A stretch of 64,000 bases of DNA from Oscillospiraceae bacterium (GCA_009777775.1 WRLE01000017.1:5622-69621), one strand, 5' to 3'. Shown: positions 34,087-57,796, counted from the first letter of the stretch. Made by a program: numbers and translations. The notes: generated from the sequence alone by a model not told the origin.

Positions 34087-34115
34087 TTGACGAAATAATG
34101 TAAACAACGTATACT
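34087..34115 (+). promoter_or_regulatory. Predicted sigma-A promoter of the glycan operon (TTGACG, 17-nt spacer, TATACT)
   Basis: TTGACG at 34087-34092, a 17-nt spacer, TATACT at 34110-34115; about 40 nt upstream of the GAGGA RBS and ATG 34154. Confidence 0.55.
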
Positions 34116-34153
34116 CTTTTTACATAACTCGCAGTCGAAAAGAGGAATCACCC

Positions 34154-35494
34154 ATGATACGAAAAATGGGCGACATATTGCTGTTTTTCGCAAAAACCCT
34201 ACTATTTTGTATAGTCCTGAGCATCTATTTCATCGGACAAATTATCTTTTACGAACATACGCTTTTCTATTATTGGGGCAACTATATAATTATTATTTTA
34301 TATGCTGCATACCTATACTTTCTATGCAGGATCTATCAAGCATTCATGATTGGAAGCTTAAACCCAACGGAAATAATCCTATCATGGATACTCTGCCTTG
34401 CAGTGACCAACACCCTCCAATACCTGATACTCAGCCTGGTGCAAAGTAGCCTTTTGTCAATTTTCGGTTTTCTCGCAGTGCTCACAGCGCAAATAATCAT
34501 CCTCATACCATTGACGCTGCTAATAGACAAGCTATACTACCACCTCAACCCTGTGCAAAAAGCCATCATAATATACGGAGATGGAGAAAAAGCTAATATT
34601 TTTCAGAAAATTGTGGAAAGAAACCATAAAAAGTTTGAAATATCCAATGTTATATCCCAAGACGAAGCAATAGAAACAATAAAAAGCATCATAGAAAGCT
34701 CCGACTGCGTGATATTTATGGAGATAAATGAAAAAAGCAGAAGTATCCTAATGGAGCATTGCTTTTTACACAATAAAAGATCATACATCATGCCAGCATT
34801 TTCCGATATCATGATAAATACAGCGGAAATAGCATGGATATCAGACATCCCGCTATATCTGCCAAAAAGCTCCGAACCAGACATGGGAACGAGATTCATG
34901 AAACGCTGCATGGACATTTTTATATCCCTCTTTGCCATTGTGCTACTGAGCCCAATCATGCTCATCACATGGCTACTCATCGTTCTTTATGACAGACAAA
35001 AGGGCATCTATAAGCAAGTTCGGGTAACCAAAGGTGGAAAACTCTTCACTTTATACAAATTTCGCTCCATGCGCACAGATGCAGAAGACGATGGCATCCC
35101 CAGGCTCACCACAAAGGACGATGACAGAATCACCCCCATAGGCAGATTCATACGCAAAACAAGAATAGACGAACTCCCCCAGCTTTTCAACGTCTTAGCG
35201 GGAAGCATGTCCCTGGTTGGTCCCCGCCCCGAACGACCGGAAATCGCAAAACAATACGAGGAAATTTACCCCAACTTTTCCCTGAGAACAAAGGTGAAAG
35301 CAGGCTTAACAGGCTTTGCTCAAATCCACGGCAGATACAACACAGCCCCCGATGAAAAGCTGCTCATGGACATAATGTATATAGAACGATTCACAATTTG
35401 GCAAGACTGCAGACTGATATTACAAACCTTAAAAGTCCTATTCAAACCCTCCAGCACAGAAGGCGTTGACAAAGACAAGGAAACGGCGTTGTGA
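34154..35494 (+). CDS. Polyprenyl-phosphate hexose-1-phosphate transferase (WbaP/WsaP/CpsE family initiating enzyme)
   Basis: N-terminal multi-TM block, a central soluble domain, and a C-terminal bacterial sugar transferase domain (KRCMDIFISLFAIVLLSPIMLI, YKFRSMR, DELPQLFNVLAGSMSLVGPRPERP, GLTGFAQI). Confidence 0.9.
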   Translation: MIRKMGDILLFFAKTLLFCIVLSIYFIGQIIFYEHTLFYYWGNYIIIILYAAYLYFLCRIYQAFMIGSLNPTEIILSWILCLAVTNTLQYLILSLVQSSLLSIFGFLAVLTAQIIILIPLTLLIDKLYYHLNPVQKAIIIYGDGEKANIFQKIVERNHKKFEISNVISQDEAIETIKSIIESSDCVIFMEINEKSRSILMEHCFLHNKRSYIMPAFSDIMINTAEIAWISDIPLYLPKSSEPDMGTRFMKRCMDIFISLFAIVLLSPIMLITWLLIVLYDRQKGIYKQVRVTKGGKLFTLYKFRSMRTDAEDDGIPRLTTKDDDRITPIGRFIRKTRIDELPQLFNVLAGSMSLVGPRPERPEIAKQYEEIYPNFSLRTKVKAGLTGFAQIHGRYNTAPDEKLLMDIMYIERFTIWQDCRLILQTLKVLFKPSSTEGVDKDKETAL

Positions 35495-35497
35495 ATT

Positions 35498-35525
35498 AGG
35501 AATGAGGAGTTAGGAGTTAGGAATG
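35498..35525. repeat. Four tandem heptamers AGGAATG AGGAGTT AGGAGTT AGGAATG; stacked SD sequences, with the last ATG being the start codon of the next gene
   Basis: Read directly. It begins 3 nt after the TGA stop of the WbaP-like gene, in the same TGAATT context as at 34000. Confidence 0.9.
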
Positions 35526-37124
35526 GCGAAAAGAACAACTACTGACCTTTCTGAGCGTAGAATGGTTGCGATGTACTCCCAGGTGGATAAATGGCAAAAC
35601 AGATTAGCAGCAACGCTAGTCTTTATGATATTTTGCCTCCAACCCCTCTACCTAAACAGCGACCGTTATTTTCGTCTAACCTGGCATAAATTCGTATTTT
35701 TCATCGTTTATATGATAATTGTCCTCATCGCCGTTGCTGTCATATGGCTGAGTAGAATTTTCAACAAACCAAGACTAGTCATTAGAGAAAAACCAAACCT
35801 AGCAGAATGGGCTATACTTGCCTTTGGGCTACTAGCCATAATATCCGCCATCATATCACCATATAAAAAAATGATAGACATAAGAGGTCTACCAGTGGAT
35901 TGGAAAATCGGACTAAACGAACGATATGACGGCATTGTTACCCAACTTATGTATATAGCCATATTTTTCATCGTCGGACGCTGGTATAAACCCAGTGAAA
36001 AACAATTCATCTTCTTTGGTATAGCAGCAATTATAGTCGCCGGAATCGGAATCCTACAATTTTATGGAATGGACTTTCTAAAACTCTGGCCCAATCACAT
36101 CCCCGAATACCATAAAGAAAACTACTATGACTTGGTATTTCGCTCCACGCTGGGAAACACAAATATCGTATCCACATATGTCTGCGCCGCAGTAATATTA
36201 TGCGGATTTTTATATATAAAATCGAACAGTAATTGGAAATACCTCTGGCTAGCAGCCAGTAGCCTGAACTTCTGGCTCATGGACTTGGCAGATGCCGATT
36301 CTGGGCGAGTGGGTGTACTGGCAGCTATGATATTCATGATACCATATATCATCGAAAGCACAAAAACCATGGGAAAAACCCTTACCCTGGCAGCCTCGTG
36401 GATAAGCCTGTACTCCCTCCAGAAGCTTCTCTTTGACGTGAATATAATACACATTAAGACAGTAAACAGTCTACTCCCCTTTGCCATTGCGATTGTGGTA
36501 ATGGCAGCAGCGGGGATTCTCCTTGACATAAAGGGTAAAGAGCGAGATAAAGACGCTGCTCCCAGATGGAAAATCGGACTTGCACTAATTGTGCTGATAA
36601 TATTAGCAGGACTAGGTGGGGCAGAAATTCTAGGTCGCCGCCCAGCGGATGACCCTAACCCAGGCGGCATCATATACGAAGTACGAGAAATCCTCCACGG
36701 TAATATTAAAGATGAATTTGGCACAAACCGTATATTCGTATGGCGACAGGCAATGTCCATATATTCACAAAACCCAATATTTGGATCAGGACCCGACACC
36801 TTCCTCTTCGTCTTCCCCATCGAAGCACAGTGGACATACGACGAACCCTATGACAAAGCACACAACGAATACCTCCAACTGCTCATATGCCAAGGCATAC
36901 TCGGTTTACTGAGCTATTTATTCTTCATTATCACCGTAGCAATCAAAGCGATACCCAAAGCATTCAAAAACCCACTTTTAACAGTCGTTCTAGCAGCATT
37001 CATAGGCTATCTCACCCAAGGATTCTTCAACATAAGTCTACCCATAACTAGCCAGCTCCTATGGGTCTTCGCAGGAATGCTAGTTAATAAAAATGTATGG
37101 GCTTCCGATTCAATAAGTGAATGA
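35523..37124 (+). CDS. O-antigen ligase / Wzy_C family polytopic membrane protein (candidate WaaL- or WsaB-like glycan transferase)
   Basis: About 12 predicted TM segments and a large loop carrying RIFVWRQA...GSGPDTF...AHNEYLQLL, characteristic of the Wzy_C/O-antigen ligase family. Confidence 0.8.
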   Translation: MAKRTTTDLSERRMVAMYSQVDKWQNRLAATLVFMIFCLQPLYLNSDRYFRLTWHKFVFFIVYMIIVLIAVAVIWLSRIFNKPRLVIREKPNLAEWAILAFGLLAIISAIISPYKKMIDIRGLPVDWKIGLNERYDGIVTQLMYIAIFFIVGRWYKPSEKQFIFFGIAAIIVAGIGILQFYGMDFLKLWPNHIPEYHKENYYDLVFRSTLGNTNIVSTYVCAAVILCGFLYIKSNSNWKYLWLAASSLNFWLMDLADADSGRVGVLAAMIFMIPYIIESTKTMGKTLTLAASWISLYSLQKLLFDVNIIHIKTVNSLLPFAIAIVVMAAAGILLDIKGKERDKDAAPRWKIGLALIVLIILAGLGGAEILGRRPADDPNPGGIIYEVREILHGNIKDEFGTNRIFVWRQAMSIYSQNPIFGSGPDTFLFVFPIEAQWTYDEPYDKAHNEYLQLLICQGILGLLSYLFFIITVAIKAIPKAFKNPLLTVVLAAFIGYLTQGFFNISLPITSQLLWVFAGMLVNKNVWASDSISE

Positions 37125-37249
37125 CATTCGTGGTGTCCAGCAACGGACAACTAATGTACAAATAACTAATTTTATATCTATCCTTGCTTTTCAACATAAT
37201 TCTCATTATACTATTAGTAATACACAGCAGTAAAAGTAATACAGGGGAT

Positions 37250-38296
37250 ATGAAAATGAACGAAGCAGCGAGCAACAACAGCAGCTACCTCATTAGCATA
37301 ATAATACCCGTATACAATTCTGAGAGTTTCCTTTCCTCCCGATTGGAGCAGCTGCTGAAAAATAACTTGGAAAACATACAAATAATCATCATTAACGATG
37401 GCAGCACAGATAAATCTTTGGAAATATGCAAACAATATTTCGACAAAAACCCCCATGCCATCATCATAAACCAAGAAAACCAAGGACTATCCGCCGCTCG
37501 CAACACAGGAATCGATACAGCCAGCGGACAATATATAGTCTTTCTCGACAGCGATGACATACTAATCACTAAAGGATTCGATGAAATCCGAAAACACCTG
37601 GAAAATGATAAACCAGACGTATTAATGGGAAAATACGTCATAATGCAGGAAAAGGGTAGACGAATCTTACCAAAATACACATTCCCGAAAATCAAAAGCG
37701 CCGACGAAGCCAGACTAGCCATCTACTCCCGCATCCACGATAGCGTGTGGTATGTCTGGCGATATATATCAAGACGCGAATTTCTCTTGGAAAATGAACT
37801 ATACTTCGTGCGCGGAATCGTCTGCGAAGATATGGAATGGACTCCAAGACTACTAACAGCCGCGAAAACTATTACCTTTGTCGATGAACCCTTTTACGGC
37901 TACTATTACAAAAGGGTGGGAAGCGTTACCCAAACAGCTGCTGTACGTAGACTCAGAGATGTAAATGCGCTGGTGGCAGCGGATGTGGACGCATATATCG
38001 ATGAATTTCATGGAAAAGCTTTAATAAATCGTTTAATAAAAGAATCATTCTTCAGCATCAGCAGATATTGCCTCTGCGGGCCAGACAACAGAAAAGCCCT
38101 ACTACCAGTCATCAACGAGGCAATTAGGACTTATAGATATTCATCATCGATTATTATAAGATTCTTTGCATTTATACGAAACTTTCTACCACTATTTATC
38201 TGTTCGGTATTGCTAACGATAGTAAGGCTAGTATTAGGCACAATAAACCGCCTACTAGGACCCCTCTCGGTGAAACACCGCGCATGGGAGTATTAA
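37250..38296 (+). CDS. Family 2 glycosyltransferase
   Basis: ISIIIPVYNSESFL, NDGSTD, RNTGIDTASGQYIVFLDSDD (the DxD motif). The start was set at ATG 37250 (MKMNEAAS); the ORF track starts at TTG 37184. Confidence 0.85.
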   Translation: MKMNEAASNNSSYLISIIIPVYNSESFLSSRLEQLLKNNLENIQIIIINDGSTDKSLEICKQYFDKNPHAIIINQENQGLSAARNTGIDTASGQYIVFLDSDDILITKGFDEIRKHLENDKPDVLMGKYVIMQEKGRRILPKYTFPKIKSADEARLAIYSRIHDSVWYVWRYISRREFLLENELYFVRGIVCEDMEWTPRLLTAAKTITFVDEPFYGYYYKRVGSVTQTAAVRRLRDVNALVAADVDAYIDEFHGKALINRLIKESFFSISRYCLCGPDNRKALLPVINEAIRTYRYSSSIIIRFFAFIRNFLPLFICSVLLTIVRLVLGTINRLLGPLSVKHRAWEY

Positions 38297-38298
38297 TT

Positions 38299-38452
38299 AT
38301 AGCTCGCTGAAACGCAGCCTAAAACACCTTTCACAGCGAGGTATAATACTATATTTTTCCGATAAACCCTTGTATTACTTACAAATATCATGTACAATAA
38401 CATTATATCTCGCTGAATAAATACAACTAGCAGCTTTCGCAGCGAGCTATAA
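38299..38452. repeat. Two imperfect palindromic elements built on ATAGCTCGCTGAAA and its complement
   Basis: TATAGCTCGCTGAAA (38298-38312) pairs with TTTCACAGCGAGGTATA (38329-38345). TATATCTCGCTGAATAAA (38404-38420) pairs with CTTTCGCAGCGAGCTATAA (38434-38452). The 14-mer recurs at 39915-39928. Confidence 0.7.
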
Positions 38453-38476
38453 TTAAACAACAAAGGGTTGAAAAAA

Positions 38477-39910
38477 ATGGAAATAATCGGTAGAGAACGA
38501 GAGCGGGAAATATTGCGACGATGCGAAAACTCGGACAAACCTGAGTTTGTAGCCATATACGGACGACGCAGAGTTGGGAAGACCTATCTTGTTGTAGAGC
38601 ATTTTCATAATAAGTTTACATTTTCCGTTACAGGAGTTTCTGATGGAAAAACAAAGGATCAGCTTCGCGTGTTTCACAGCGCGCTAAAAAAACACTTCCA
38701 ATCTGACATTCCAGAGCCAAAAAACTGGTTTGACGCATTCATCTTGTTGGAAGAGCAACTCGAAAAAGACATTACCCTTGCTCGAAAAGTATTGTTCATT
38801 GACGAAATGCCATGGCTCGATACACCAAAATCGAATTTTTTACCCGCTTTAGAACACTTCTGGAACTCCTATGCATCTAGGAGAAAAGATATCCTCCTTA
38901 TTGTTTGCGGATCAGCCGCTTCATGGATAATAAAGAATTTGATGAACAGTTACGGAGGTCTACATAATAGGTTAACAGAAAATATAGTTGTTGAACCATA
39001 TTATTTATACGAATGCGAAGCATTCTATAGAAGCCGCGGAATCGCTATGACTAGGCACCAAATGGCTGAGGCTTATATGATACTTGGAGGTATTCCATTC
39101 TATATGGATGCAATGAATAAAATGTATGGGCTAAACCAAAATATAGATATGCTTTTATTTGAAAACAACGCAAAATTAGAAAACGAATTCAACCGCTTAT
39201 ATAATTCCCTATTCCGTCACGCAGATAACCATATAAGCATTGCTAAAACGCTCGCAAAAAATAACACAGGAATGACTCGAAAGGAATTATCCCAAGCCAG
39301 TGGAGTTTCTGACGGTGGCGGCTTGACCAAAGTGTTAGAGGAAATGGTTGCATGCGGTCTGATTGGTCGGAGTTTTGACATTTCGAAAAAGAGAAATGGC
39401 GATTACTACAAACTAGTCGATTTCTATACCCTATTCTATTTTAAATACATAGAAACGCAAAAGGGAAATGACCCACGATTCTGGACCAATTATTTATCGT
39501 ACCCAGCACATAGGACTTGGTGCGGTTACGCATTCGAAAGGCTTTCTATTGCTCACAGCCAACAAATCAAACAAAAACTAGGAATATCAGGGGTATTATC
39601 TGAAACATATGTTTTTAGGAGCATCGGACAAAGAGGAGTCTCCAGTGGAGCACAAATTGATTTGGTTATTGACCGTAAGGATGATGTAATAAATCTTTGT
39701 GAGTGCAAATTTACAGTCCAACCATACGAACTTACTGAAAAAGACCTCGCTGATTTCGAGCGAAAAAAGACAGTTTTTCTACAAGAAACCGCAACAAAAA
39801 AAGCAATCCACCTAACAATGATCACATCAAGCGGACTCGTCCACAATGCATATAGAAACGAAATTCAATCAGAAATTACATTAGACGATTTATTCCAGCC
39901 TTTGTTGTAA
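38477..39910 (+). CDS. AAA-type ATPase (Arch_ATPase/ATPase_2 plus DUF234-like C-terminus)
   Basis: EIIGREREREILRRCENSDKPEFVAIYGRRRVGKTYLV (Walker A), Walker B LFIDEMPWL, and a winged-helix-like, nuclease-like C-terminal part (IDLVIDRKDDVINLCECKF). ATG 38477 was preferred over TTG 38468. Confidence 0.75.
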   Translation: MEIIGREREREILRRCENSDKPEFVAIYGRRRVGKTYLVVEHFHNKFTFSVTGVSDGKTKDQLRVFHSALKKHFQSDIPEPKNWFDAFILLEEQLEKDITLARKVLFIDEMPWLDTPKSNFLPALEHFWNSYASRRKDILLIVCGSAASWIIKNLMNSYGGLHNRLTENIVVEPYYLYECEAFYRSRGIAMTRHQMAEAYMILGGIPFYMDAMNKMYGLNQNIDMLLFENNAKLENEFNRLYNSLFRHADNHISIAKTLAKNNTGMTRKELSQASGVSDGGGLTKVLEEMVACGLIGRSFDISKKRNGDYYKLVDFYTLFYFKYIETQKGNDPRFWTNYLSYPAHRTWCGYAFERLSIAHSQQIKQKLGISGVLSETYVFRSIGQRGVSSGAQIDLVIDRKDDVINLCECKFTVQPYELTEKDLADFERKKTVFLQETATKKAIHLTMITSSGLVHNAYRNEIQSEITLDDLFQPLL

Positions 39911-39914
39911 GCTC

Positions 39915-39928
39915 ATAGCTCGCTGAAA
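39915..39928. repeat. Third copy of ATAGCTCGCTGAAA, a direct repeat of 38299-38312
   Basis: Exact 14-mer read directly. Together with 38299-38312 it flanks the ATPase gene. Confidence 0.8.
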
Positions 39929-39929
39929 T

Positions 39930-40136
39930 ATGACTAAGTACACTTTCACAAAGACATCAGTTTTTTCACAGCTCAATAACCTAACTGATATTACAATGAT
40001 AGAAGAATATGCTGACATTTGTGGAATACCTGTAGATAGTCTTGAAGAAGGGAAGCTCGAGATTATGCTGGATATACTGCGAGGGTTTTTCGCTTCTATC
40101 CCCTATGAGCTCCACCTCAATGCGGAGGCTTCCTAA
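39930..40136 (+). pseudogene. Internal fragment of an AAA-ATPase_like/PDDEXK_9-type gene
   Basis: FTKTSVFSQLNNLTDITMIEEYADICGIPVDSLEE and FFASIPYELH resemble the middle of the PF09820-type ATPases common in gut anaerobes. It is only 68 aa and has no ATPase N-terminus. Confidence 0.5.
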
Positions 40137-40179
40137 GCAGAGACGAAATTGAAATGGTTGTTGAATAATTAGGTATAAA

Positions 40180-40719
40180 ATGGATAAATTATCATATAGT
40201 GACTACTATTCATGGGACGATGGTAAACGCTGGGAACTAATTGACGGTATCCCATATGCCATGGCACCAGGACCATCACAAGAACATCAATCAATATCAA
40301 TGGGCATAAGTAATCAGCTATATAATTTTTTAAAAGGCAAAACCTACAAAGTCTTCTCGGCACCTTTCGATGTCCGTCTAAACCACGATTCCGAAGATGA
40401 CACCGTTGTCCAACCTGATATAATAGTAGTATGCGACGAAACCAAACTTGATGGAAAAAGCTGTAACGGTGCCCCTGACATGGTGGTGGAAATTTTATCA
40501 CCAACAAGCGAAAGGAACGACCGAGTAGTAAAGTTTCATCTCTACCTACGCTACGGAGTAAATGAATATTGGATAGTAGACCCGGTAGAAAAGACAGTAC
40601 AGACCCATATACTCGAAAACGGAAGATACATTATAAACGTATACACCGAAACTGACGAAATACAGGTACATACTCTAGAAGGACTGACGATAAAGCTAGC
40701 AGAGGTGTTTGTAGGATAA
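40180..40719 (+). CDS. Uma2 family (DUF820) PD-(D/E)XK endonuclease
   Basis: WELIDGIPYAMAPGPSQEHQ, VVQPDIIVVCD, APDMVVEILSPTS, VNEYWIVDP: the canonical Uma2 pattern. Confidence 0.85.
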   Translation: MDKLSYSDYYSWDDGKRWELIDGIPYAMAPGPSQEHQSISMGISNQLYNFLKGKTYKVFSAPFDVRLNHDSEDDTVVQPDIIVVCDETKLDGKSCNGAPDMVVEILSPTSERNDRVVKFHLYLRYGVNEYWIVDPVEKTVQTHILENGRYIINVYTETDEIQVHTLEGLTIKLAEVFVG

Positions 40720-40745
40720 TTCAGAATAAAGGAATTAGCAGCAAC

Positions 40746-41558
40746 ATGATTAAGTTTTCTCTTCTCATATGTGTTTACGAAAAAGAAAACCCCCAGCATT
40801 TCGCACAATGCATTGAAAGCATACTTAATCAGACAGTCTTACCTGATGAACTTATCATCGTCAAAGACGGTCCATTAACGAATGAATTGGATAAGATAAT
40901 ACTTAACTTGAACTTTCAACATGATTTAAGTATAATATCACTACCAGAAAACATGACCTTAGGTCCGGCGCGAGCAGAAGGTATAAAACAAGCAAAACAT
41001 GAGTGGATAGCGATAATGGATAGTGATGATATTTCTCGTAGCGATAGACTTGAAAAACAAATAAAAATGATTAATGAAAACCCTGAGCTTGGCTTAATGG
41101 GAGGACAAATTTCCGAGTTTACCAACCAGAAATCAAATAAAGTGTATTCACGAACAGTACCCACATCTCACAATGATATAGTAAAATATGCTAAAAAACG
41201 AAACCCATTTAATCATATGACAGTCATGTTAAAACGTGACCTTGTTATATCTGCTGGTAATTATAGGTATTTTCCCTTGTTTGAAGACTACGATTTATGG
41301 ATACGCATGATAAAAAATGGTGTTATATGCGCAAATCATCCAGATATATTAGTTGATGCTCGAACCAATAACAAGACATATGGACGAAGACGAGGTGTAT
41401 CATATATAAATTCTGAGTGGCGAATGCAATCTCAACTCAAAAAGATTGGTTTTTTAAACAATTTAGAATTCGTTCGAAACTTAATATTACGCATTCCTAT
41501 TAGACTACTTCCATCACGAATAGTAGGTTTCATTTACAAAAAAACGCTCAGAAGATAA
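40746..41558 (+). CDS. Family 2 glycosyltransferase
   Basis: FSLLICVYEKENPQHFAQCIESILNQT, IIVKDGPLT, IAIMDSDDIS (the DxD motif). Confidence 0.85.
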   Translation: MIKFSLLICVYEKENPQHFAQCIESILNQTVLPDELIIVKDGPLTNELDKIILNLNFQHDLSIISLPENMTLGPARAEGIKQAKHEWIAIMDSDDISRSDRLEKQIKMINENPELGLMGGQISEFTNQKSNKVYSRTVPTSHNDIVKYAKKRNPFNHMTVMLKRDLVISAGNYRYFPLFEDYDLWIRMIKNGVICANHPDILVDARTNNKTYGRRRGVSYINSEWRMQSQLKKIGFLNNLEFVRNLILRIPIRLLPSRIVGFIYKKTLRR

Positions 41559-42588: not shown

Positions 42589-42605
42589 AAACGAGGATAA
42601 CAAAA

Positions 42606-47673: not shown

Positions 47674-47716
47674 AATATTTAACACAATTATATTATTTCT
47701 TCAATGGAGATACTAT

Positions 47717-49474: not shown

Positions 49475-49489
49475 TAATGTAGGTATTTT

Positions 49490-50359
49490 ATGCGGTTAGT
49501 TTCTCAACTAGTAAAATTGATACGCCCTAAGCAATGGATTAAGAACAGCTATGTTTTTGCTGCACTAGTGTTTTCGGGCAGTTTATTCAATCTCTCCATG
49601 TTTATGATGTGTTGTTTTGGGTTTACAATATTTTGTATTTCATCAAGTTGTGTATACATCGTTAATGATGCAATAGATGCTAGCAGCGACCGTGCACATC
49701 CACAGAAAATGAATCGTCCTTTAGCAAGTGGTGCTGTTAGTATTACTCAAGCAATGCTGCTATTATTGACATTGTTAATATTATTATTACTCAGCTTTGT
49801 ATATGTTAACATACATTTCAGAGTAGTTATATCTATCTACTTACTAATAAATTTACTATATTCTTTTTGGCTAAAAAATGAACCTATAATCGACATCATA
49901 TGCATTTCATTAGGCTTTGTTTTGCGTGCAATTTCTGGAGCTGTTATTATTAACGTAACAATATCACCATGGTTACTAATTTGTACATTTTTATTATCAT
50001 TATATTTAGCGATTAACAAAAGAACTTGCGAAATAAAAAATATTGCGATAGAAGCAGCATATAAACGGAAGGTATTAGAATTTTATACAATCGACATGCT
50101 CAGTAGTATGTCATCGGTTGTTTTATCTGCGACTATTACAGCATATTGTATTTATATAATAACTACAGAATTAATGGCTAATATGCTAATTACAATACCT
50201 TTTGTTGTCTATGGGTTATTTCGATATCAACATATAGCTAATTCAACTGAATATGCTGAGTCACCAGAGACAGCTATCCTAAAAGATAAACCTTTACTAA
50301 TATGTGTACTAATCTGGGGATTAGCATGTGTTTCATTCATGTATATTAATTTTACATAG
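49490..50359 (+). CDS. UbiA-superfamily polyprenyl-phosphate phosphoribosyltransferase (DPPR-synthase-like)
   Basis: LIRPKQWIKNSYVFAALVF, the Asp-rich motif YIVNDAIDASSDRAHPQKMNRPLASG, and eight to nine TM segments. The pattern resembles the Rv3806c subfamily. Confidence 0.75.
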   Translation: MRLVSQLVKLIRPKQWIKNSYVFAALVFSGSLFNLSMFMMCCFGFTIFCISSSCVYIVNDAIDASSDRAHPQKMNRPLASGAVSITQAMLLLLTLLILLLLSFVYVNIHFRVVISIYLLINLLYSFWLKNEPIIDIICISLGFVLRAISGAVIINVTISPWLLICTFLLSLYLAINKRTCEIKNIAIEAAYKRKVLEFYTIDMLSSMSSVVLSATITAYCIYIITTELMANMLITIPFVVYGLFRYQHIANSTEYAESPETAILKDKPLLICVLIWGLACVSFMYINFT

Positions 50360-50406
50360 TTTGAATAGATAAAAGCAGAGCATTGGTATTAGGAGAAGCG
50401 ATATAT

Positions 50407-51453
50407 ATGGCTAAGTATTTTATAACTGGCGGTGCGGGTTTTTTAGGAATTAACCTAACTCGGCATCTTCTACAATTAGGTCACACTATTGTCTCTTATG
50501 ATTTTGATGAATCATATAATTATCCCGAAAAAGAAGATATTAGAGTAAAAGTAATAACTGGTGATATAAGAAACATTGGTTTACTCAAAGAATCTATGTT
50601 GACTTGCGATATTGTTGTACATTGTGCTGCTGCATTACCTTTATATAGTAAAAATGATATATTTACTACAGATATCAATGGCACAAAAAATGTCTTGCAA
50701 TCTGCTCTTGAAATTGGGATTGAGAGAGTTATTCAAATATCATCAACTGCTGTATATGGGATACCCGATCACCATCCAATATATGAAACTGATCAATTAA
50801 CAGGTGTTGGACCTTATGGTATAGCTAAAATTGAAGCTGAAAGAGTTTGTGAAGAGTATCGCACAAATGGATTGTGTGTACCAATAATTCGTCCAAAAAG
50901 TTTTATCGGGCCAGAACGATTGGGGGTGTTCGCTCTATTTTACGATTGGGCGAAAGATGGTAGAGGATTTCCAATGATTGGTAAAGGTAATAACCGATAT
51001 CAATTCCTCGATGTTTATGATTTATGTGAGGCAATTTATCTATGTGCTACTCTTGAAAAAAGCATCGTTAACGATACGTTTAACATAGGAGCGGAAGAAT
51101 TTACTACGATGCGCGAAGACTATCAAGCGGTGCTTGATTATGCTGGATACGGGAAAAAAATTAGGACTTTTCCTGCTGCTCCAATGATATGGACTTTGCG
51201 TTTTTTAGAGCTGCTCCATTTGTCTCCATTATACAAATGGGTTTATGAAACTGCTGCAACAGATTCGTTTGTATCAATAGACAAAGCCAAAGAAAAACTA
51301 GGGTTTGAGCCTATATACTCAAATAAAGAAGCTCTACTACGAAATTATGACTGGTATATTAATAATTTGGAGACAATTAGTAACGTATCAGGAGTTACTC
51401 ATCGTGTTCCATGGAAGCAAGGAATCCTTGGGTTGGTAAAGAAATTCTTTTAA
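50407..51453 (+). CDS. NAD-dependent epimerase/dehydratase (extended SDR)
   Basis: FITGGAGFLGINL (GxxGxxG), catalytic YGIAK (YxxxK). The start was set at ATG 50407. Confidence 0.85.
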   Translation: MAKYFITGGAGFLGINLTRHLLQLGHTIVSYDFDESYNYPEKEDIRVKVITGDIRNIGLLKESMLTCDIVVHCAAALPLYSKNDIFTTDINGTKNVLQSALEIGIERVIQISSTAVYGIPDHHPIYETDQLTGVGPYGIAKIEAERVCEEYRTNGLCVPIIRPKSFIGPERLGVFALFYDWAKDGRGFPMIGKGNNRYQFLDVYDLCEAIYLCATLEKSIVNDTFNIGAEEFTTMREDYQAVLDYAGYGKKIRTFPAAPMIWTLRFLELLHLSPLYKWVYETAATDSFVSIDKAKEKLGFEPIYSNKEALLRNYDWYINNLETISNVSGVTHRVPWKQGILGLVKKFF

Positions 51454-51526
51454 CAGACAATATTATATTATGCATATAATATAGAGTCATACCTTAGTAG
51501 CTAACTACACTTCAGAGATGTGATTT

Positions 51527-52087
51527 ATGAATGTCTACGATTTTGATGGAACAATATATGATGGAGACAGCACAAAAGACTTCTTTATCTTTTGCGTGAG
51601 AAGGTACCCCAAAATTTGTATTATACTTCCGAAATTTTTTTACTATTTTATTCAGTACATAATCGGTAATTGCGATAAAGAAAGATTAAAAGAATCATTT
51701 TTTGGATTTTTGCGATTGTTACCAAATACGCAAGACGAAGTGATGCTATTTTGGGAAAAACACGAAATAAAGATTCAAAAATGGTATCTTTCGCAGAAAC
51801 GGAGTAACGATGTTATTATTTCTGCTTCACCTGGATTTTTACTACAACCAATCTGCGAAAAATTAGGTATTTCTTGCATTGCATCAGTAGTAAACCCTGA
51901 TAATGGGTTATATACTGGTTTAAACTGTTATGGTAATGAAAAAGTGAGACGTTTTCGAGAAATATATATTGATGCATCAATTAATTGTTTTTATACGGAT
52001 TCATTATCTGATATACCAATGGTTGAGATAGCACAATCTGCTTATATTGTGAAAAATGGTAATGTAACAAAATATGACATATTTTGA
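51527..52087 (+). CDS. HAD-superfamily hydrolase/phosphatase
   Basis: Motif I VYDFDGTIYDGDS (DxDxT), motif II ISASP, motif IV-like YTDSLSD. Confidence 0.7.
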   Translation: MNVYDFDGTIYDGDSTKDFFIFCVRRYPKICIILPKFFYYFIQYIIGNCDKERLKESFFGFLRLLPNTQDEVMLFWEKHEIKIQKWYLSQKRSNDVIISASPGFLLQPICEKLGISCIASVVNPDNGLYTGLNCYGNEKVRRFREIYIDASINCFYTDSLSDIPMVEIAQSAYIVKNGNVTKYDIF

Positions 52088-52233: not shown

Positions 52234-53250
52234 ATGAATATATTTTCAAAAATTATAAATAGACTAACTAATAATAAACGCTTCTCAATTCTGGAAAATG
52301 ACCGCACAGAACTATTTAGCAGAATCGATGAAATGATGATTCGAATTGATAATATTGAAAACAAAGCTAATACATCATTAAATTCAAATATTACAAAATA
52401 CAATGATTCATACTTGGAATTTGAGTATTTAAATGAACTACTTAGAGTAGCAAAAATGTTGTATGAAACAAGAGAAGACCCCAATACTATATATGCATCA
52501 CCTCCGGAGTATACAAAAGATACTGGGCTGTTGCTTGACGAAAATGTATTTCGTAATTTTAGTCATGCACATGGTTTTTCATTAATATCTTTTTCACAAC
52601 GTAGTCAAGATAAAATTGTTGAAGCATTACTCTTCGAGGCTGGCATTACAAAACCTAGCTACCTCGATATTGGTGCTAATACTCCAGTAGAAATGTCAAA
52701 TACAGCTTTGTTTTACCGAAAGGGGTGTAGTGGTGTTGTTGTAGATGCTAATGAGTCTCTTCGGCAAAGATGGACTGAGTTGCGACCTAACGATATATTT
52801 GTTAATGCTGCTGTTTCAACAATTAGTGGTGAAAAGATACCGTTTTACATGCTGGACATGTACTCACCGCGTAACTCTGTTGATTTTGAAACTATAAATG
52901 CTTTTATAGAAGAATCAAAGAAAACTGAAAATCCTTGGGAAATTATGAAAACAATTGAAGTAACAACCATTACAATAAATGAAATCGTCGATATATATTG
53001 TAATGGGATATTTCCTGACTATTTATCTATAGACATAGAAGGAATGGATTTACATGTTCTTCAAAATGCTGATTTCACCTTATCGGCTCCAAAAGTAATA
53101 AGTATTGAAGACCAATCAACCGAATTGTATCATACACTAAAAGAAAAAGGTTTTTTTCCAATAGTATCTGTTGGAGATACAATCGCTGTTCACAGTAGTT
53201 TAGCACCGATAGTGCGTCCATGGATAGATATCGAAGAATCTAAACTATGA
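52234..53250 (+). CDS. FkbM-family methyltransferase with a 45-aa N-terminal helical module
   Basis: YLDIGANTPVEMSNTALFYRKGCSGVVVDANE (SAM motif I) and LSIDIEGMDLHVL. The N-terminus is homologous to that of the 53313 gene. Confidence 0.75.
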   Translation: MNIFSKIINRLTNNKRFSILENDRTELFSRIDEMMIRIDNIENKANTSLNSNITKYNDSYLEFEYLNELLRVAKMLYETREDPNTIYASPPEYTKDTGLLLDENVFRNFSHAHGFSLISFSQRSQDKIVEALLFEAGITKPSYLDIGANTPVEMSNTALFYRKGCSGVVVDANESLRQRWTELRPNDIFVNAAVSTISGEKIPFYMLDMYSPRNSVDFETINAFIEESKKTENPWEIMKTIEVTTITINEIVDIYCNGIFPDYLSIDIEGMDLHVLQNADFTLSAPKVISIEDQSTELYHTLKEKGFFPIVSVGDTIAVHSSLAPIVRPWIDIEESKL

Positions 53251-53312
53251 TGCTTACATAGATGATGTAATGGACAAGTTCTATTTAGAGCATCTCATCA
53301 AAGGAGTATTAT

Positions 53313-54590
53313 ATGAATATACTTAAAAAAATTAAAAATAGATTGATAGATAACCAACGCTTTACAATACTTGAAAAAGATCGATCAGAGTTATTCAATC
53401 GAATTGATGAAATCTGGACTCGTCTAGAAGATATAGATAAAAAAACAATTAATAATTCATCATCATTTAATATAGGGAATTCTAGCGCAACGAATGAACC
53501 TAATAACCCTCTCAATCAAAATAAATTGAACATTGCGTTTTTAATACGTGGTGGTTTAGGTGATATTGTAATGCTGGCAAACTATATCTATATGTTTCGT
53601 AAAAAATTCTCTGATGACATAATAAATATTGATATTTTTTCTGATGATCACAGATTCGAATCAACACGAACCGTTTTTAATGGTGTTCAATCTAGCTTTA
53701 TTAATAATCTTTATGCTAGAAACAAAGATGCAGCTAAATTGAATTATTATGATTTATTTATCGATATAGCACGATATCCTGATATAAAGAAGCGCGATTT
53801 ATCAAGAATATCAGAAATGGTTCCTGAGTTAATTGAATATATATTTTTATGTGAACGTTTTCGTGCAGAATACTCACGTTTTTTTACTCACCAAGGACCT
53901 ACAGATGGTCAATCCGCAATGGTCAGCATCATTAAAGGAGCTAAACGATACCAACAAGCTGATATTTATGGATTCCTTGGTATGTCCGAAAAATATGAAC
54001 ATAGTATTCATATTGCAGAAAATGAGAATGCTTACTTACAACAGCTTGGTTTATATAATCGAAACTTCATTACAATTAATCGAGGAAACGATAGTGCGTA
54101 TGCTAAAAACAGTACCAAAATCTGGCCTCTCTCATATTACGGTATTTTAATACGTTTATTAAAAAAGAGATTTCCCAACATTATCTTGGTACAAATTGGT
54201 GCAGACAGCACAGTATTTCCAATTTTACCAGGTGCTGATATGCATCTTGTTTCTCAGACTAGTCTCGAACAAGTAAAGGTATTGCTAAAACATGCAACTT
54301 TACATATTGATGGCGAAGGCGGTTTAGTACATATGAGACATGCTTTGAATGGCGGTAAATCAATCGTACTATTTGGTCCAACATCTGCTGAGTTTTTTGG
54401 TTATTCTGAGAATGAAAATATTGTTGGAAAAGGGTGCGATGTCTGGTGCGAATGGGCATTTAGTAATTGGCAAGATCGTTGTTTACGAGGAAAATCCTCT
54501 GCTTTTTCGCATTGTATGGCATCAATTATTCCTGAAAAAGTTTTAATGCATATAGAAAATGTGTTAACAAATAATCAGGAGGAGCAATAA
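53313..54590 (+). CDS. GT9-like glycosyltransferase, paralog 2, with the same N-terminal helical module
   Basis: LNIAFLIRGGLGDIVM, KIWPLSYYGILIRLL, HIDGEGGLVHMRHALNGGKSIVLFGPT, and the Cys motif CDVWC...WQDRC...C. Confidence 0.65.
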   Translation: MNILKKIKNRLIDNQRFTILEKDRSELFNRIDEIWTRLEDIDKKTINNSSSFNIGNSSATNEPNNPLNQNKLNIAFLIRGGLGDIVMLANYIYMFRKKFSDDIINIDIFSDDHRFESTRTVFNGVQSSFINNLYARNKDAAKLNYYDLFIDIARYPDIKKRDLSRISEMVPELIEYIFLCERFRAEYSRFFTHQGPTDGQSAMVSIIKGAKRYQQADIYGFLGMSEKYEHSIHIAENENAYLQQLGLYNRNFITINRGNDSAYAKNSTKIWPLSYYGILIRLLKKRFPNIILVQIGADSTVFPILPGADMHLVSQTSLEQVKVLLKHATLHIDGEGGLVHMRHALNGGKSIVLFGPTSAEFFGYSENENIVGKGCDVWCEWAFSNWQDRCLRGKSSAFSHCMASIIPEKVLMHIENVLTNNQEEQ

Positions 54591-54593
54591 TAT

Positions 54594-56156
54594 ATGAGTA
54601 ATAGTAAAATAACTGTAGCATTTAGATTAAATGGTGGTATAGGTACTTATTTAGTCGAATTAAACTTCATCAAGTTCTTTTATGATGCTTTTCCTGATGT
54701 AATTATTTCGGTATTTGGTTCTACTTCAGAAGCAGTTAATGCTGGACTTATGAACTCCCAATACTTTATCGCAAAATATCATGTTCGTAGTATGTTTCGC
54801 GAGTATGGCTATGATTTAATAATTGACTTAAACTGGTTTCCAAAAGTTATATATGTAAATATGCCAAAAATTCAAACTCAAGTACCCGGACTTCCTGAAA
54901 TAATAAAACAATGGGTAGCTTTTGAGACTGATCCTGCAACAAACAATTTTATTCGAAATGACTCGATTTTTGATTATAACATATATACATATGCTATAGC
55001 AAACAAAAAAAACAGGCTAAATGTAATGGATATTAATGAAGCTTTAGGTATAGAAAGTCAATTTCGCTATACCTTGTATCCACTCAGAGACGAACTTGAT
55101 GTACTTAATAAATTTGGCTTAAGTGAGCTTAATTACATAACTTTACAACAAGGAGTTAATGCTGACTCAAATTCAAAACAATCTCCTAAACAATGGCCAA
55201 TTCATAATTTCAATGTACTTTGTCGTTTACTTAAACATGAATATCCCGATATTATTTTAGTGCAACTCGGAGAGTTAGCTAATAACGAACCAATCGAAGG
55301 TGTTGATATGAATTATTTAGGAGACACAGACTTTGAGGAACTTAAAATACTTTTGAAAAACGCATTTTTACATATAGACGGTGAGTGCGGTATGATGCAT
55401 ATGCGTAAAGCTATGTTAGCTGGTCCTTCGGTAGTATTGTATGGTCAAACTCCTATAGAAATTTATAGCTATGATGATAATTTGAATATCTATACTAATG
55501 TTTGCATGGGATGTAGTAAGTTATTTAGCGGATGGAAAAGACGTTGTCTTTTGAAAGAGCCAATTTGTATGACTTCAATAACACCCGAAATGGTACTTAA
55601 TGTTATTAGAAATCATATTGAAAATGAAACTAAATACAAAACAATCAAACTCACAAAACTTCAGGAGCTTTTATCCGATTCAACTATTAAGCTTGATCCC
55701 GAATGGGTTGAATTGTGGTTAAAGGAACGAATTATTTACGATTATTGGGTAGAAAAAATAAAGCTAAAGGATTTATTAGCTACAAACTTGACAGAGAATG
55801 GTTATGTACCTATTCCGCTTGAAGAAACAGCAGCATTCAAATACATAAGTGGAAATCATCAACAATACATTGAATACATAAAATTGAACGATATTTATAA
55901 TCCTGGCCACGAGCGTACATTGGAAAAAATTGATAATTTAATTGAGCAACTGAACACACACGGATATAACCAAAATCAATTTATAGTAATTGATGGAAAC
56001 AATATTATATTTGATGGCTCGCATCGCGCAAGTTGGTTGATGTATATGTATGGCGGTGATTATGAAGTAGAAACGATTAAGATATATCTTGATGAGAATA
56101 CTGGCTCTGTTCTATACTCACAATTAATTGAAGAAATTTCAGAATTGAACGAGTAA
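54594..56156 (+). CDS. GT9-like glycosyltransferase, paralog 3, fused to a C-terminal ParB/Srx-like domain
   Basis: ITVAFRLNGGIGTYLV, KQWPIHNFNVLCRLL, HIDGECGMMHMRKAMLAGPSVVLYGQT, and the Cys motif CMGC...WKRRC...C. The C-terminal 140 aa ends in IEQLNTHGYNQNQFIVIDGNNIIFDGSHRASWL (the DGxHR motif of the ParB/sulfiredoxin fold). Confidence 0.6.
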   Translation: MSNSKITVAFRLNGGIGTYLVELNFIKFFYDAFPDVIISVFGSTSEAVNAGLMNSQYFIAKYHVRSMFREYGYDLIIDLNWFPKVIYVNMPKIQTQVPGLPEIIKQWVAFETDPATNNFIRNDSIFDYNIYTYAIANKKNRLNVMDINEALGIESQFRYTLYPLRDELDVLNKFGLSELNYITLQQGVNADSNSKQSPKQWPIHNFNVLCRLLKHEYPDIILVQLGELANNEPIEGVDMNYLGDTDFEELKILLKNAFLHIDGECGMMHMRKAMLAGPSVVLYGQTPIEIYSYDDNLNIYTNVCMGCSKLFSGWKRRCLLKEPICMTSITPEMVLNVIRNHIENETKYKTIKLTKLQELLSDSTIKLDPEWVELWLKERIIYDYWVEKIKLKDLLATNLTENGYVPIPLEETAAFKYISGNHQQYIEYIKLNDIYNPGHERTLEKIDNLIEQLNTHGYNQNQFIVIDGNNIIFDGSHRASWLMYMYGGDYEVETIKIYLDENTGSVLYSQLIEEISELNE

Positions 56157-56261
56157 TAGGTTTTATAAACATTAATATAGTAAGCTTTATCATCAGGCAT
56201 TAACAAAAATCTCATTTGTTAATCGTTTTTGAAATATATTTATAAACCAAGGAGGTGTATG

Positions 56262-57302
56262 ATGGAACAATTATGGAAAAATATACATAACCTATATTCA
56301 AAAAATAAAAGTATTGTTATTCCAACAAACAATGAGGAGTCAATGATTGCTATTGAGTCATTGACAGACTACCATAAGTCACGCGGGCTTGACTATATTG
56401 CTTCTCGTCTTGATTTTTTATTGATAGCTCAAGCAATTACTCTTTACTATTCGAAACATGATCGTTATCAAACTCTTGATTCTGAAGCAAAGTACATAGT
56501 TGATTATCTTGATACTGATGAGTTTTACCATCATATAATGCGGTATAGAGTTTATCCATTAGATTCACAGATGATCTCGTTTACAAAACAATTTTATAAT
56601 AATATATATCCTCATACTGGATACCCTCAAATTGACAATATCGAAGAATCATTAAGTATTGATAATGGGTTCATTTACGCGAATCCTAATAATCATAAAG
56701 TTTATCTCAAAGGCAATTTCGATGAAGCTCGTGTTTATTGGAGAGCACTAATGACTGAACAAATACCAAACCATCCTCATTGTTATCTAAATGAATCAAA
56801 CTTCAACATAAATAATGGAGAAATAATTGCAGACATAGGCGCAGCAGAAGGTTACTTTAGCATAGCTCATATAAATAAAATAAAACATGCATACATATTT
56901 GAATGCGATGATTCCTGGTTTAATTTACTAAAAAAGACATATGCTCCATTTAAAGATAAAGTAACTCTAATAAAAGGTTATGTTGGAGATGGAAACGGAA
57001 ACATCTCTCTTGATGAATATTTTAAAGATAAAGATAAACCTACATTTTACAAACTTGATGTTGAAGGAGCTGAAGGTTCTGTGTTGCGATGCATGAGTAC
57101 GCTTTTGCATGATCCCTCATTACCAATGCGATTAGCAATATGCACATACCATCGCCAAGAAGATGCTCCATACTTTGAATGGTTACTAGGTGACACTTTT
57201 CATAAACATTACTCAAATTCATATTTTTGGCATATGCCTGACCCTATGCCTCCATTTCTGCGCCGAGGTGTAATGCGTGCAACAAAAATGCTAAATAAAT
57301 AA
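56262..57302 (+). CDS. FkbM-family methyltransferase
   Basis: GGAGG RBS before ATG 56262. IADIGAAEGYFS (SAM motif I) and YKLDVEGAEGSVL. Confidence 0.75.
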   Translation: MEQLWKNIHNLYSKNKSIVIPTNNEESMIAIESLTDYHKSRGLDYIASRLDFLLIAQAITLYYSKHDRYQTLDSEAKYIVDYLDTDEFYHHIMRYRVYPLDSQMISFTKQFYNNIYPHTGYPQIDNIEESLSIDNGFIYANPNNHKVYLKGNFDEARVYWRALMTEQIPNHPHCYLNESNFNINNGEIIADIGAAEGYFSIAHINKIKHAYIFECDDSWFNLLKKTYAPFKDKVTLIKGYVGDGNGNISLDEYFKDKDKPTFYKLDVEGAEGSVLRCMSTLLHDPSLPMRLAICTYHRQEDAPYFEWLLGDTFHKHYSNSYFWHMPDPMPPFLRRGVMRATKMLNK

Positions 57303-57322
57303 AACTAAAAGGTAAATAACTG

Positions 57323-57796
57323 ATGAATAATCGAGCGATTTTTTTAGATAGAGATGATACCATAATCGTAGATCGTGGATATTTAAGCAATCCTAATGAT
57401 ATTGAATTTTTACCCGGTGTTGTTTCTGCTCTTAAAACATTTCAAGACACAGGTTATTTGTTGATTATGGTGAGTAACCAATCAGGTATTGGAAGAGGAT
57501 ATTTTACTATAGATGAATATAACGCTGTTCATGCTCGTTTCATGGAGTTACTTAAAGATAATGATATTAGTTTCACCGCATATTATTATTGTCCTCATGC
57601 TCCGGATGATAACTGCGAATGTAGAAAACCAAAAGCATTTTGGGCATACAAAGCCGCTGAAGAATATAACATTGATTTGAACGAGAGTTACATGATTGGT
57701 GATAAAGATAGCGATATAGAATTTGGCAATAATTTTGGTGCAAAACAATCTTTTAAAAGCGTTACTGAGTGTGTTCAATATTTTGAAAGAGCATAA
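57323..57796 (+). CDS. gmhB: D-glycero-D-manno-heptose 1,7-bisphosphate phosphatase (HAD-IIIA)
   Basis: AIFLDRDDTII (DxDxT), VSNQSGIGRGYF, the Zn-binding loop YYCPHAPDDNCECRKPK, and IGDKDSDIE. Confidence 0.85.
   Translation: MNNRAIFLDRDDTIIVDRGYLSNPNDIEFLPGVVSALKTFQDTGYLLIMVSNQSGIGRGYFTIDEYNAVHARFMELLKDNDISFTAYYYCPHAPDDNCECRKPKAFWAYKAAEEYNIDLNESYMIGDKDSDIEFGNNFGAKQSFKSVTECVQYFERA

Follow-up and report, generated by a model that had tools for sequence, protein, structure and literature searches.

The window analysed here, a 64,000-nt stretch of a contig from an Oscillospiraceae metagenome-assembled genome (MAG), carries at 34087-57796 what is best read as a surface-glycan assembly locus of a monoderm Clostridium (all coordinates are positions in the window). 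The favoured reading combines a core for glycan initiation, export and transfer with a block of sugar genes and takes neighbouring surface proteins with SLH domains as the acceptor; taken whole, it has about an even chance of being right. Its parts merit different degrees of confidence. It is quite probable that the product is a lipid-linked, ABC-exported glycan that contains heptose and is pentofuranosylated, the SLH proteins have roughly half a chance of being its acceptor, and a wall or lipid polymer is a less likely acceptor. In its favour, family scans of the window proteins found no Wzx-type flippase and no LCP ligase (the latter, like the TagO/TagA-type genes that the scans did not find either, may lie elsewhere in the genome). 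Family assignments, motifs, folds and synteny were computed; sugar identities, the order of the steps and the acceptor are inferred. An Oscillospiraceae MAG (class Clostridia) encodes the proteins FWG88_10385 and FWG88_10395, which two proteins of the window match exactly, and the + strand carries every gene between 22781 and 63423.

In the proposed pathway a WbaP-like transferase would prime undecaprenyl phosphate to give undecaprenyl-PP-hexose, to which two family 2 glycosyltransferases (GT2), the conserved GT2b and GT2a, would add adaptor sugars. GmhA, HldE and GmhB are predicted to supply ADP-D,D-heptose, which three paralogous soluble GT9-like enzymes would add to the lipid-linked chain in the cytoplasm. 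One or two FkbM-type enzymes would O-methylate the chain and Wzm/Wzt would export it. A UbiA-type synthase, polyprenyl-phosphate 5-phosphoribosyltransferase (PPPRS), would use phosphoribosyl pyrophosphate (PRPP) to form polyprenyl-P-ribofuranose-5-P, a HAD-IB phosphatase would take off the 5-phosphate and a short-chain dehydrogenase/reductase (SDR) probably epimerises the pentose. From the resulting polyprenyl-P-pentofuranose donor a GT-C-like enzyme would add pentofuranose side branches outside the membrane. Finally, a Wzy_C protein would move the finished glycan en bloc to its acceptor, most likely Ser, Thr or Tyr residues of the adjacent giant SLH-anchored proteins.

Profile searches recovered every gene family that an initial annotation of this DNA had named, each at the place given for it. 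The initiating polyprenyl-phosphate hexose-1-phosphate transferase (34154-35494) has the large WbaP-like architecture with about five transmembrane segments. It matches Bac_transf with 208 bits and exceeds the cut-off of TIGR03025 (319 bits against 295.6), which bears out its earlier description as WbaP-type, and it stays under the cut-offs of the WbaP and WcaJ models. The next gene (35523-37124) encodes a polytopic membrane protein with a Wzy_C domain (52.1 bits, cut-off 31.7), a candidate O-oligosaccharyltransferase or ligase in which R134, R388, R403 and H447 are invariant among 20 homologues; a sequence search of the PDB gave no relative. Pfam matches likewise confirmed the GT2 and Wzm/Wzt calls. 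GT2a (37184-38296, Glycos_transf_2 116.5 bits) has one C-terminal transmembrane segment, and GT2b (40746-41558, 87.5 bits) is soluble. Wzm (41608-42588) is an ABC-2 permease (ABC2_membrane 64.5 bits; galactan Wzm/RfbD model, E 1.4e-24) whose true start probably lies 3′ of the start of its open reading frame (ORF) at 41608. Wzt is an ABC ATPase of about 245 aa (ABC_tran, TagH/Wzt-like) at 42606-43343; its ORF as listed runs from 42504, and 42606 is probably the true start.

The core is conserved among relatives of the Wzy_C protein, which were collected from 80 metagenomic loci (41-63% identity; many labelled termite-gut). Of the 54 loci in which much of Wzy_C is covered, 36 have the initiating transferase next to the Wzy_C gene. 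Loci L100, L103 and L101 repeat the order transferase–Wzy_C–(GT2b)–Wzm–Wzt, L110 has the four genes without GT2b, and L106 has transferase–Wzy_C–Wzt; the Wzm and Wzt proteins of relatives are 67-75% identical to those of the window (67-74% for Wzm). In L091 the arrangement is third SLH gene–fourth SLH gene–transferase–Wzy_C–Wzm with 63-76% identity and without the insert of GT2a, an ATPase gene and a Uma2 gene. In the longer of the related loci, homologues of GT2b (59-66% identity) accompany transferase–Wzy_C–Wzm–Wzt, and 14 loci have a GT2b match overall; GT2b is the probable adaptor transferase of the conserved cassette. GT2a was matched at 40% query coverage or more in only 1/80 related loci and is specific to the window locus. 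Some related loci carry two tandem Wzy_C paralogues (L125 8534-11637; L160/L161).

The sugar block behaves differently. Genes for HldE, the GSU2086-family protein, GT9, PPPRS, SDR, HAD-IB and FkbM are absent from the flanks of the related loci that bear the cassette, and in L106 and L095 the cassette gives way at once to housekeeping genes. A heptose core without the cassette occurs in L001 (Wzm–Wzt–HldE–…–GSU2086–GT9w–GmhB) and in L090, where the order is HldE–radical SAM–GSU2086–(381-aa gene, 53% identical to GT9w)–methyltransferases–GmhB. As cassette and heptose core each recur apart, the locus is a mosaic of a lineage-conserved machine and a strain-specific sugar block, and the heptose genes are a variable add-on to the conserved cassette. 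O-antigen and slg loci show the same mosaic behaviour (PMC2943079).

An alternative has two separate loci adjoining each other: the transferase–Wzy_C–GT2 genes would serve a Wzy-dependent pathway with the Wzy_C protein as polymerase, and the Wzm/Wzt–heptose genes would make a polymer of their own. The G+C content is 0.41-0.49 over the SLH genes and the first three genes of the locus and 0.30-0.36 from 40 kb onward. The transferase/Wzy_C part (0.41-0.43) thus differs from the heptose part (0.30-0.36), and two unrelated genes lie between them. Owing to this step and the intervening genes, joint operation of both parts is an inferred feature of the favoured reading. The heptose cores of L001 and L090 also have no initiating transferase or Wzy_C protein nearby. 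However, transferase–Wzy_C is joined directly to Wzm–Wzt, with GT2b or without it and with no inserted genes, in the relatives L091, L100, L103, L110 and L101, the heptose block itself lacks an initiating transferase, and the Wzx-type flippase of a Wzy-dependent pathway was not among the window proteins. Two separate loci are therefore improbable, and a single glycan locus is preferred.

The acceptor is suggested by the genes directly upstream, where, as had been claimed, four SLH-protein genes are found, with Pfam SLH domains in all four. They encode proteins of 640 aa with a C-terminal SLH region (14069-15991, + strand, 51.9 bits), of 2076 aa with three N-terminal SLH domains and Big_2 repeats (16228-22458, - strand, SLH 94.6 and Big_2 108 bits), of 1212 aa with LRR_5, Big_2, Flg_new_2 and C-terminal SLH domains by Pfam (22781-26419, + strand) and of 2467 aa with Flg_new_2 repeats and C-terminal SLH, also by Pfam (26599-34002, + strand). 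By their domains these are giant adhesin-like proteins anchored through SLH, and a place in an S-layer lattice is not supported for them. In L091 a full-length homologue of the fourth (63% identity) lies directly 5′ of the initiating transferase, and a homologue of the third (68% identity) lies upstream of the transferase–Wzy_C pair. Across relatives, SLH-domain ORFs adjoin the Wzy_C gene in 6/80 related loci as opposed to 0/80 control loci, which makes the link to SLH proteins stronger than the initial annotation could know. Among loci of at least 8 kb the figures are 5/27 and 0/69 (Fisher p = 0.0013), with controls drawn from other Clostridia that possibly have no SLH proteins; some of the synteny may also be plain inheritance. 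The SLH ORFs lie upstream, downstream or on both sides of Wzy_C, and this variety of arrangement points to more than inherited order. Genes for O-oligosaccharyltransferases often adjoin those of their targets (21/31; PMC3643930).

The same adjacency is equally expected for a polymer that anchors SLH domains. The product could be a wall-associated polymer, either a secondary cell-wall polymer (SCWP) or a lipid-anchored glycan and possibly the SLH ligand itself, with the Wzy_C protein acting like WpaA/WpaB of B. anthracis or, as a ligase, joining the glycan to a lipid or linkage unit. SLH proteins require a wall polymer, and WpaA/WpaB of the Wzy/WaaL clan have been implicated in SCWP and S-layer assembly in B. 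anthracis (PMC6030368). The heptose locus L001 moreover contains a pyruvyltransferase-like gene (PS_pyruv_trans, 32 bits), and pyruvylation is the epitope that SLH domains bind. Yet a search of the window for CsaB-type pyruvyltransferase homologues, which could be elsewhere in the genome, found none, and the TagO/TagA-type and LCP genes that were likewise not found in the window would also be wanted for such a polymer. WpaA/WpaB belong to PF13425 whereas the window protein matches PF04932, and a glycan block that varies between relatives suits antigenic decoration better than a conserved SLH ligand. A wall polymer is therefore possible though doubtful. Sequence alone cannot decide between the two acceptors; the SLH proteins are favoured and the wall polymer is the rival.

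Heptose supply is predicted from three genes. The GmhA-like sedoheptulose-7-phosphate isomerase (43485-44129) matches SIS_2/SIS. HldE (44133-45563) joins a heptose-7-phosphate kinase of the PfkB family to a heptose-1-phosphate adenylyltransferase with a CTP_transf_like domain, and its kinase domain I exceeds the cut-off of TIGR02198 (357 against 345 bits). The GmhB-like heptose-1,7-bisphosphate 7-phosphatase (57323-57796) passes the HAD-IIIA model (113 bits, cut-off 44.6) as well as a histidinol-phosphatase domain model, and a homologue with 58% identity ends the L001 locus. HldD was not found; the one SDR of the locus reaches 38 bits on TIGR02197, whose cut-off is 274.6. As HldD is missing from the window, the product is predicted to be ADP-D,D-heptose. 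An ADP rather than a GDP route, as proposed initially, follows from the pairing of a PfkB kinase with a cytidylyltransferase-like domain in HldE.

Aneurinibacillus thermoaerophilus makes GDP-alpha-heptose by way of HddA, a GHMP kinase, and HddC of the NTP_transferase family. Its S-layer glycan resembles the predicted product as a heptose-containing surface glycan in a Gram-positive organism (cited in PMC2943079) and differs in that HldE in the window predicts ADP-beta-heptose. The other model is the inner core of lipopolysaccharide (LPS), made by WaaC and WaaF, with which the locus shares GmhA-like and GmhB-like proteins, a bifunctional HldE and transferases of the GT9 fold. LPS carrying a D,D-heptan is known from Helicobacter pylori. 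Since the classical LPS core set comprises HldE, GmhA, GmhB, GT9 and a Wzy_C/WaaL-like protein, the locus could be taken for an inner-core/O-antigen locus of a diderm Firmicute with WaaL as ligase. The source is instead a member of the Oscillospiraceae, class Clostridia. Among the best 80 relatives of the GSU2086-family protein encoded in the heptose block, 79 are labelled Clostridia/Bacillota or are unassigned, the exception being L022 (Verrucomicrobia). No gene of the window was assigned to lipid A, Kdo or Lpt functions, and the SLH proteins are large and adhesin-like, not tethers of the OmpM type. Unlike the LPS pathway, that of the window belongs to a monoderm host, has no HldD in the window and is coupled to Wzm/Wzt and a WbaP-type primer and not to Kdo2-lipid A. 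An LPS locus is scarcely credible and was rejected on taxonomy and gene content.

Three GT9-like transferases are candidates for building the heptose chain, and two of the three calls made initially pass the Pfam model: GT9a (53313-54590) scores 40.6 bits on Glyco_transf_9 and GT9b (54594-56156), which has a C-terminal extension of about 175 aa, scores 29 bits, the cut-off being 22. GT9w (46516-47673) fails at 18.1 bits but is a clear paralogue of both (blastp E 8e-33 and 3e-34), and it has a homologue with 52% identity in L001. Single GT9 sequences gave nothing useful against the PDB save a marginal match to WaaF, while a profile of the three window proteins and two homologues matches WaaC with E 2e-5. 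All five aligned proteins (GT9w, GT9a, GT9b, L001 10947-12119 and L090 5711-6856) carry four invariant cysteines near the C-terminus in the pattern C-x2/3-C…W…C…C (Cys4 motif). In contrast to the rest of the likeness to the LPS enzymes, this motif aligned to no part of WaaC in the profile match. By its pattern it predicts a metal-binding knuckle reminiscent of the iron finger of TibC, in which Cys339/342/358/370 bind iron and whose substrate is ADP-D,D-heptose (PMC4358343).

This resemblance suggests that the GT9-like enzymes might heptosylate the neighbouring adhesin-like proteins directly in the cytoplasm, in the fashion of the TibC/AAH heptosyltransferases. The motif (CxxC…C…C in 5/5 sequences), the substrate of TibC (PMC4358343), the missing HldD and the giant repeat-rich surface proteins next door all fit. 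TibC was nevertheless not detected by sequence or profile searches of the PDB at E values up to 10, in which WaaC and WaaF were found. The homologue of GT9w in L001, like GT9w itself, sits in a Wzm/Wzt locus, and the window locus has a complete lipid-linked machinery. Direct heptosylation is thus very improbable, and addition of heptose to a lipid-linked chain is preferred.

Two FkbM-type methyltransferases had been proposed. FkbM1 (52234-53250) passes with 57.6 bits on Methyltransf_21. FkbM2 (56229-57302) is divergent and stays below the cut-offs of TIGR01444 (32.7 against 37.7 bits) and Pfam (16.6 against 22.7), but it keeps the motifs DIGAAEG and KLDVEGAEGSVL (DIGAxxG; KxDxEGxE type). The motifs DIGAxxG and KLDVEGAE are taken by us to be of FkbM type. 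FkbM1 and GT9a have in common an N-terminal segment of about 80-100 residues with 37% identity (52234-52480 and 53313-53600). Speculatively, it may serve complex formation, docking or as a ruler element. By eye, the start of this segment resembles a coiled-coil protein of L001 (9574-9996).

The initial proposal included a terminal methyl cap; a cap coupled to export is unsupported. The Wzt protein has no C-terminal carbohydrate-binding domain and ends with its ATPase domain, and its homologues are likewise short (240-244 aa). Coupling of a WbdD-type chain terminator to a Wzt with a carbohydrate-binding module (CBM), as in E. coli O9a, was accordingly not found, and the window gives no support to the cap-recognition mechanism that was shown for E. 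coli O9a and had been proposed for Geobacillus. Methylation may be internal to the chain.

Three parts of the locus had gone unmentioned in the initial annotation: a pentofuranose module (47654-52087), a GSU2086-family gene (45574-46509) and two non-glycan genes (38468-40719). The module consists of four adjacent genes that predict the formation of pentofuranose side chains for extracytoplasmic branches. Its PPPRS, of the UbiA family (49490-50359), scores 248 bits on NF008977, the NCBIfam equivalog model for decaprenyl-phosphate phosphoribosyltransferase (cut-off 234), and has NDxxDxxxD at residues 59-67. The extended SDR (50383-51453, Epimerase 132.6 bits) is a candidate polyprenyl-phosphate pentofuranose epimerase with the motifs TGGAGFLG and YGIAK (TGxxGxxG, YxxxK). 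The HAD-IB phosphatase (51527-52087, HAD 64.8 bits, DFDGT at residues 5-9) is a candidate phosphoribose 5-phosphatase. Comparable modules occur elsewhere. The HAD-IB protein is 44% identical to the one that follows the PPPRS gene on the exopolysaccharide plasmid pF27D of Lactococcus cremoris, where the order is hypothetical membrane protein, PPPRS, HAD-IB, GtrA. The SDR is 27% identical (E 1e-38) to that in the PPPRS module of L171, a phage-labelled faecal scaffold with the order PPPRS–HAD–(118-aa four-helix protein)–SDR–(565-aa membrane protein).

The fourth gene of the module (47654-49474; NCBI start 47717, 585 aa) encodes a polytopic membrane protein with no Pfam or NCBIfam match, which on fold and context is read as a GT-C-like glycosyltransferase with a C-terminal beta-sandwich. 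Homology searches by word index, whether with the single sequence or a profile, returned only the protein itself, and a full HMMER scan yielded a family of 355 representatives in which a Glu-Asp pair after the first transmembrane helix is invariant. The AlphaFold model (pLDDT 83.9, pTM 0.86) shows a polytopic bundle and the beta-sandwich; the best PDB folds in Foldseek are STT3 subunits of oligosaccharyltransferase and, for the C-terminus, Ig-like domains. A tblastn search of phage and plasmid collections gave no match, and no similarity was detectable to the PPPRS-linked membrane proteins of pF27D or L171. A copy of the window's SDR (69-74% identity) lies directly 5′ of the GT-C homologue in L087/L088. 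One homologue is followed by GtrA, GT2 and UDP-sugar enzymes, and a second lies in an Rml/Wzm/Wzt locus with a methyltransferase–GT2–GT2 protein and, further 3′, a UDP-glucose dehydrogenase, an SDR, a GT2 and two EamA proteins. We take the methyltransferase–GT2–GT2 protein to be WsaE-like and the EamA pair to be ArnE/F-like. Such neighbourhoods support a polyprenyl-P-sugar donor.

The closest precedent is the pentofuranose system of Citrobacter youngae O1/O2 (Kelly et al. 2024, PMC11127046), where experiments established a PPPRS with a phosphatase, a flippase and a GT-C that carries a CBM at its C-terminus, and where an SDR converts Ribf to Xylf. Shared with the window are the PRPP-dependent UbiA synthase, the HAD phosphatase, the optional GalE-like SDR epimerase, a membrane protein read as a GT-C whose C-terminal domain is rich in beta structure, and a glycan locus dependent on an ABC transporter. 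In contrast, the window has a Gram-positive host, no MATE, SMR or GtrA flippase and a phosphatase that is a separate HAD-IB protein, as noted for one phage example (PMC11127046). The Citrobacter GT-C belongs to GT136. As to the heptan-type glycan that had been proposed, heptose remains predicted but the product would not simply be a heptan, since the PPPRS/phosphatase/SDR/GT-C module predicts pentofuranose branches.

The GSU2086-family protein (45574-46509, NF052581 370 bits) has a deoxyhypusine-synthase-like fold, and its gene lies between those for HldE and GT9w. Its AF2 model (pLDDT 90) matches, in Foldseek, the C-terminal region of ArgZ/AgrE, LOR/SDH and deoxyhypusine synthase (E 1e-7 to 1e-4, TM 0.5-0.6), which are folds of the NAD-binding type. 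The gene adjoins the GT9w homologue in L001, and in L090 (4773-5714) it adjoins the gene 53% identical to GT9w. In Geobacter sulfurreducens, GSU2086 is flanked by hldE and gmhA, and the three share similar fitness defects in transposon mutagenesis (PMC5585712). Of 80 Clostridia loci with a gene of this family, 32 have a GmhA gene no more than 10 kb away. The family has at least 8000 homologues, all unnamed or hypothetical, and one of them (P0244) carries a fused HAD domain. A reasonable working hypothesis for its role is an NAD-dependent step acting on a heptose intermediate.

Besides the step in composition and the limits of the SLH comparison given above, several points weigh against the favoured reading. 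Candidates for all three enzymes of the heptose route named initially were found, but GmhA, GmhB and the adenylyltransferase domain of HldE stay under equivalog cut-offs: gmhA models give E 2e-37 and 125-129 bits (cut-offs 209-276), the GmhB models 154 bits for NF006506 (178) and 144 bits for a second model (149.6), and the adenylyltransferase-domain model 165 (181.5). The full-length bifunctional model NF008454 gives HldE 487 bits (521). For the Wzy_C protein the PglL_A model gave no match and a Pfam scan found no TPR, and the Wzy_C domain does not distinguish an O-oligosaccharyltransferase from a ligase or polymerase (PMC3643930). The GT-C assignment draws on context and on weak Foldseek scores for a predicted model (E 3e-3, TM 0.34-0.39). 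In and near the locus there is no small multi-transmembrane ORF, hence no candidate for a MATE, SMR or GtrA flippase, although a flippase does occur in the comparable modules of L081 and L171. The source, finally, is a MAG contig, and the locus is known here from its genes alone.

As a whole, the locus follows the logic of the slg clusters of Geobacillus stearothermophilus NRS 2004/3a and Paenibacillus alvei CCM 2051T, as had been suggested. Common to all are the unusual pairing of WbaP-type initiation with Wzm/Wzt and a G+C content lower than that of the surrounding DNA (PMC2943079), a candidate O-oligosaccharyltransferase with a Wzy_C domain, methyltransferase activity and an adjacent surface-protein gene. 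The P. alvei cluster also has a lipid-linked side-branch donor and no flippase (PMC2943079). The slg glycans contain rhamnose, Gal or ManNAc, whereas ADP-heptose and pentofuranose are predicted here. The methyltransferases of the window are separate proteins of FkbM type where slg has a WsaE domain, there is no TPR partner, Wzt has no C-terminal domain, and the neighbours are giant SLH adhesin-like proteins where slg has an established S-layer protein. The earlier remark that the combination is unusual stands: the parts are known, namely the slg/ABC O-antigen assembly logic, the three-component side-chain pathway of 2024 and the ADP-heptose supply of LPS. New are their combination, a conserved cassette with a heptose/pentose block in a monoderm Clostridium, the distinct GT-C-like family and the position of the cassette beside SLH-protein genes. 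A literature search, incomplete in coverage, found no paper describing such a locus. The findings would be no surprise to a specialist and offer useful leads for bacterial glycobiology.

ADP-heptose is a potent innate-immune agonist. If the favoured reading is true, glycans made from it would extend beyond LPS and a few natural products to Gram-positive gut bacteria, and Clostridia would join the hosts of the pentofuranose side-chain pathway of 2024, using a GT-C of another family. The transferase–Wzy_C–Wzm–Wzt cassette beside SLH genes would be a tractable model for how Clostridia decorate or anchor large surface adhesins, and the GT-C-like and GSU2086 families would become testable in a defined pathway context. 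A broader reading, in which ADP-heptose serves a general O-glycosylation of SLH adhesins in monoderm Clostridia, adds three claims. A D,D-heptan backbone would be built by Cys4-bearing GT9 enzymes; extracellular alpha-pentofuranose would be added by an unrecognised GT-C family (the 355 representatives, with no Pfam model); and GSU2086, with more than 8000 homologues and a place in hldE/gmhA operons from Geobacter to Clostridia, would be an unrecognised NAD-dependent nucleotide-heptose enzyme that might, for example, replace HldD or make a modified heptose. That all of this holds jointly is unlikely.

The boundary between the last SLH gene and the glycan locus is marked by a terminator-like hairpin with a 13-bp stem (34048-34077) and a promoter-like site (34087-34115), both on the + strand and both consensus matches only; they account for the start originally given to the locus. 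No RNA family of Rfam was found in the window. The two non-glycan genes that split the locus are candidates for phage defence: an AAA ATPase (38468-39910, Pfam ATPase_2), the candidate PDC-S27 with 633 bits in PADLOC, and a Uma2-family nuclease (40180-40719, Uma2 123 bits), the candidate PDC-S03 with 195 bits. Five related loci, including L103, L123 and L136, carry homologues of the latter within or next to the transferase–Wzy_C cassette.

Downstream of the locus a remnant of a Wzt-type ATPase (59912-60071, + strand), comprising about 50 C-terminal residues, was detected by tblastn. It is 48% identical to the Wzt of L001 (E 6e-12) and 37% identical to the window's own Wzt, and it looks like a scar of a past cassette exchange or rearrangement. 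The remnant sits in an AT-rich stretch (G+C 0.28) of ORFs without family matches. An EcsC-like protein (60340-61119) matches the defence candidate PDC-S30 (287 bits), and an HD-domain protein (61783-63423) weakly resembles anti-phage dGTPases (40 bits). The DNA 3′ of the glycan locus may be a defence island; at the equivalent place L090 has an OLD/AAA and UvrD gene pair, presumably Gabija-like. At the other end of the window a type II restriction-modification pair on the - strand (4366-6567) comprises a Dcm-type cytosine methyltransferase (165 bits) and a PADLOC REase_II (386 bits). Between this pair and the SLH genes, 6825-13090 encodes a 1075-aa RCC1-repeat protein (WD40_RLD 627 bits) and a 980-aa fn3/LCAT-like esterase, both large and with domains typical of surface proteins.

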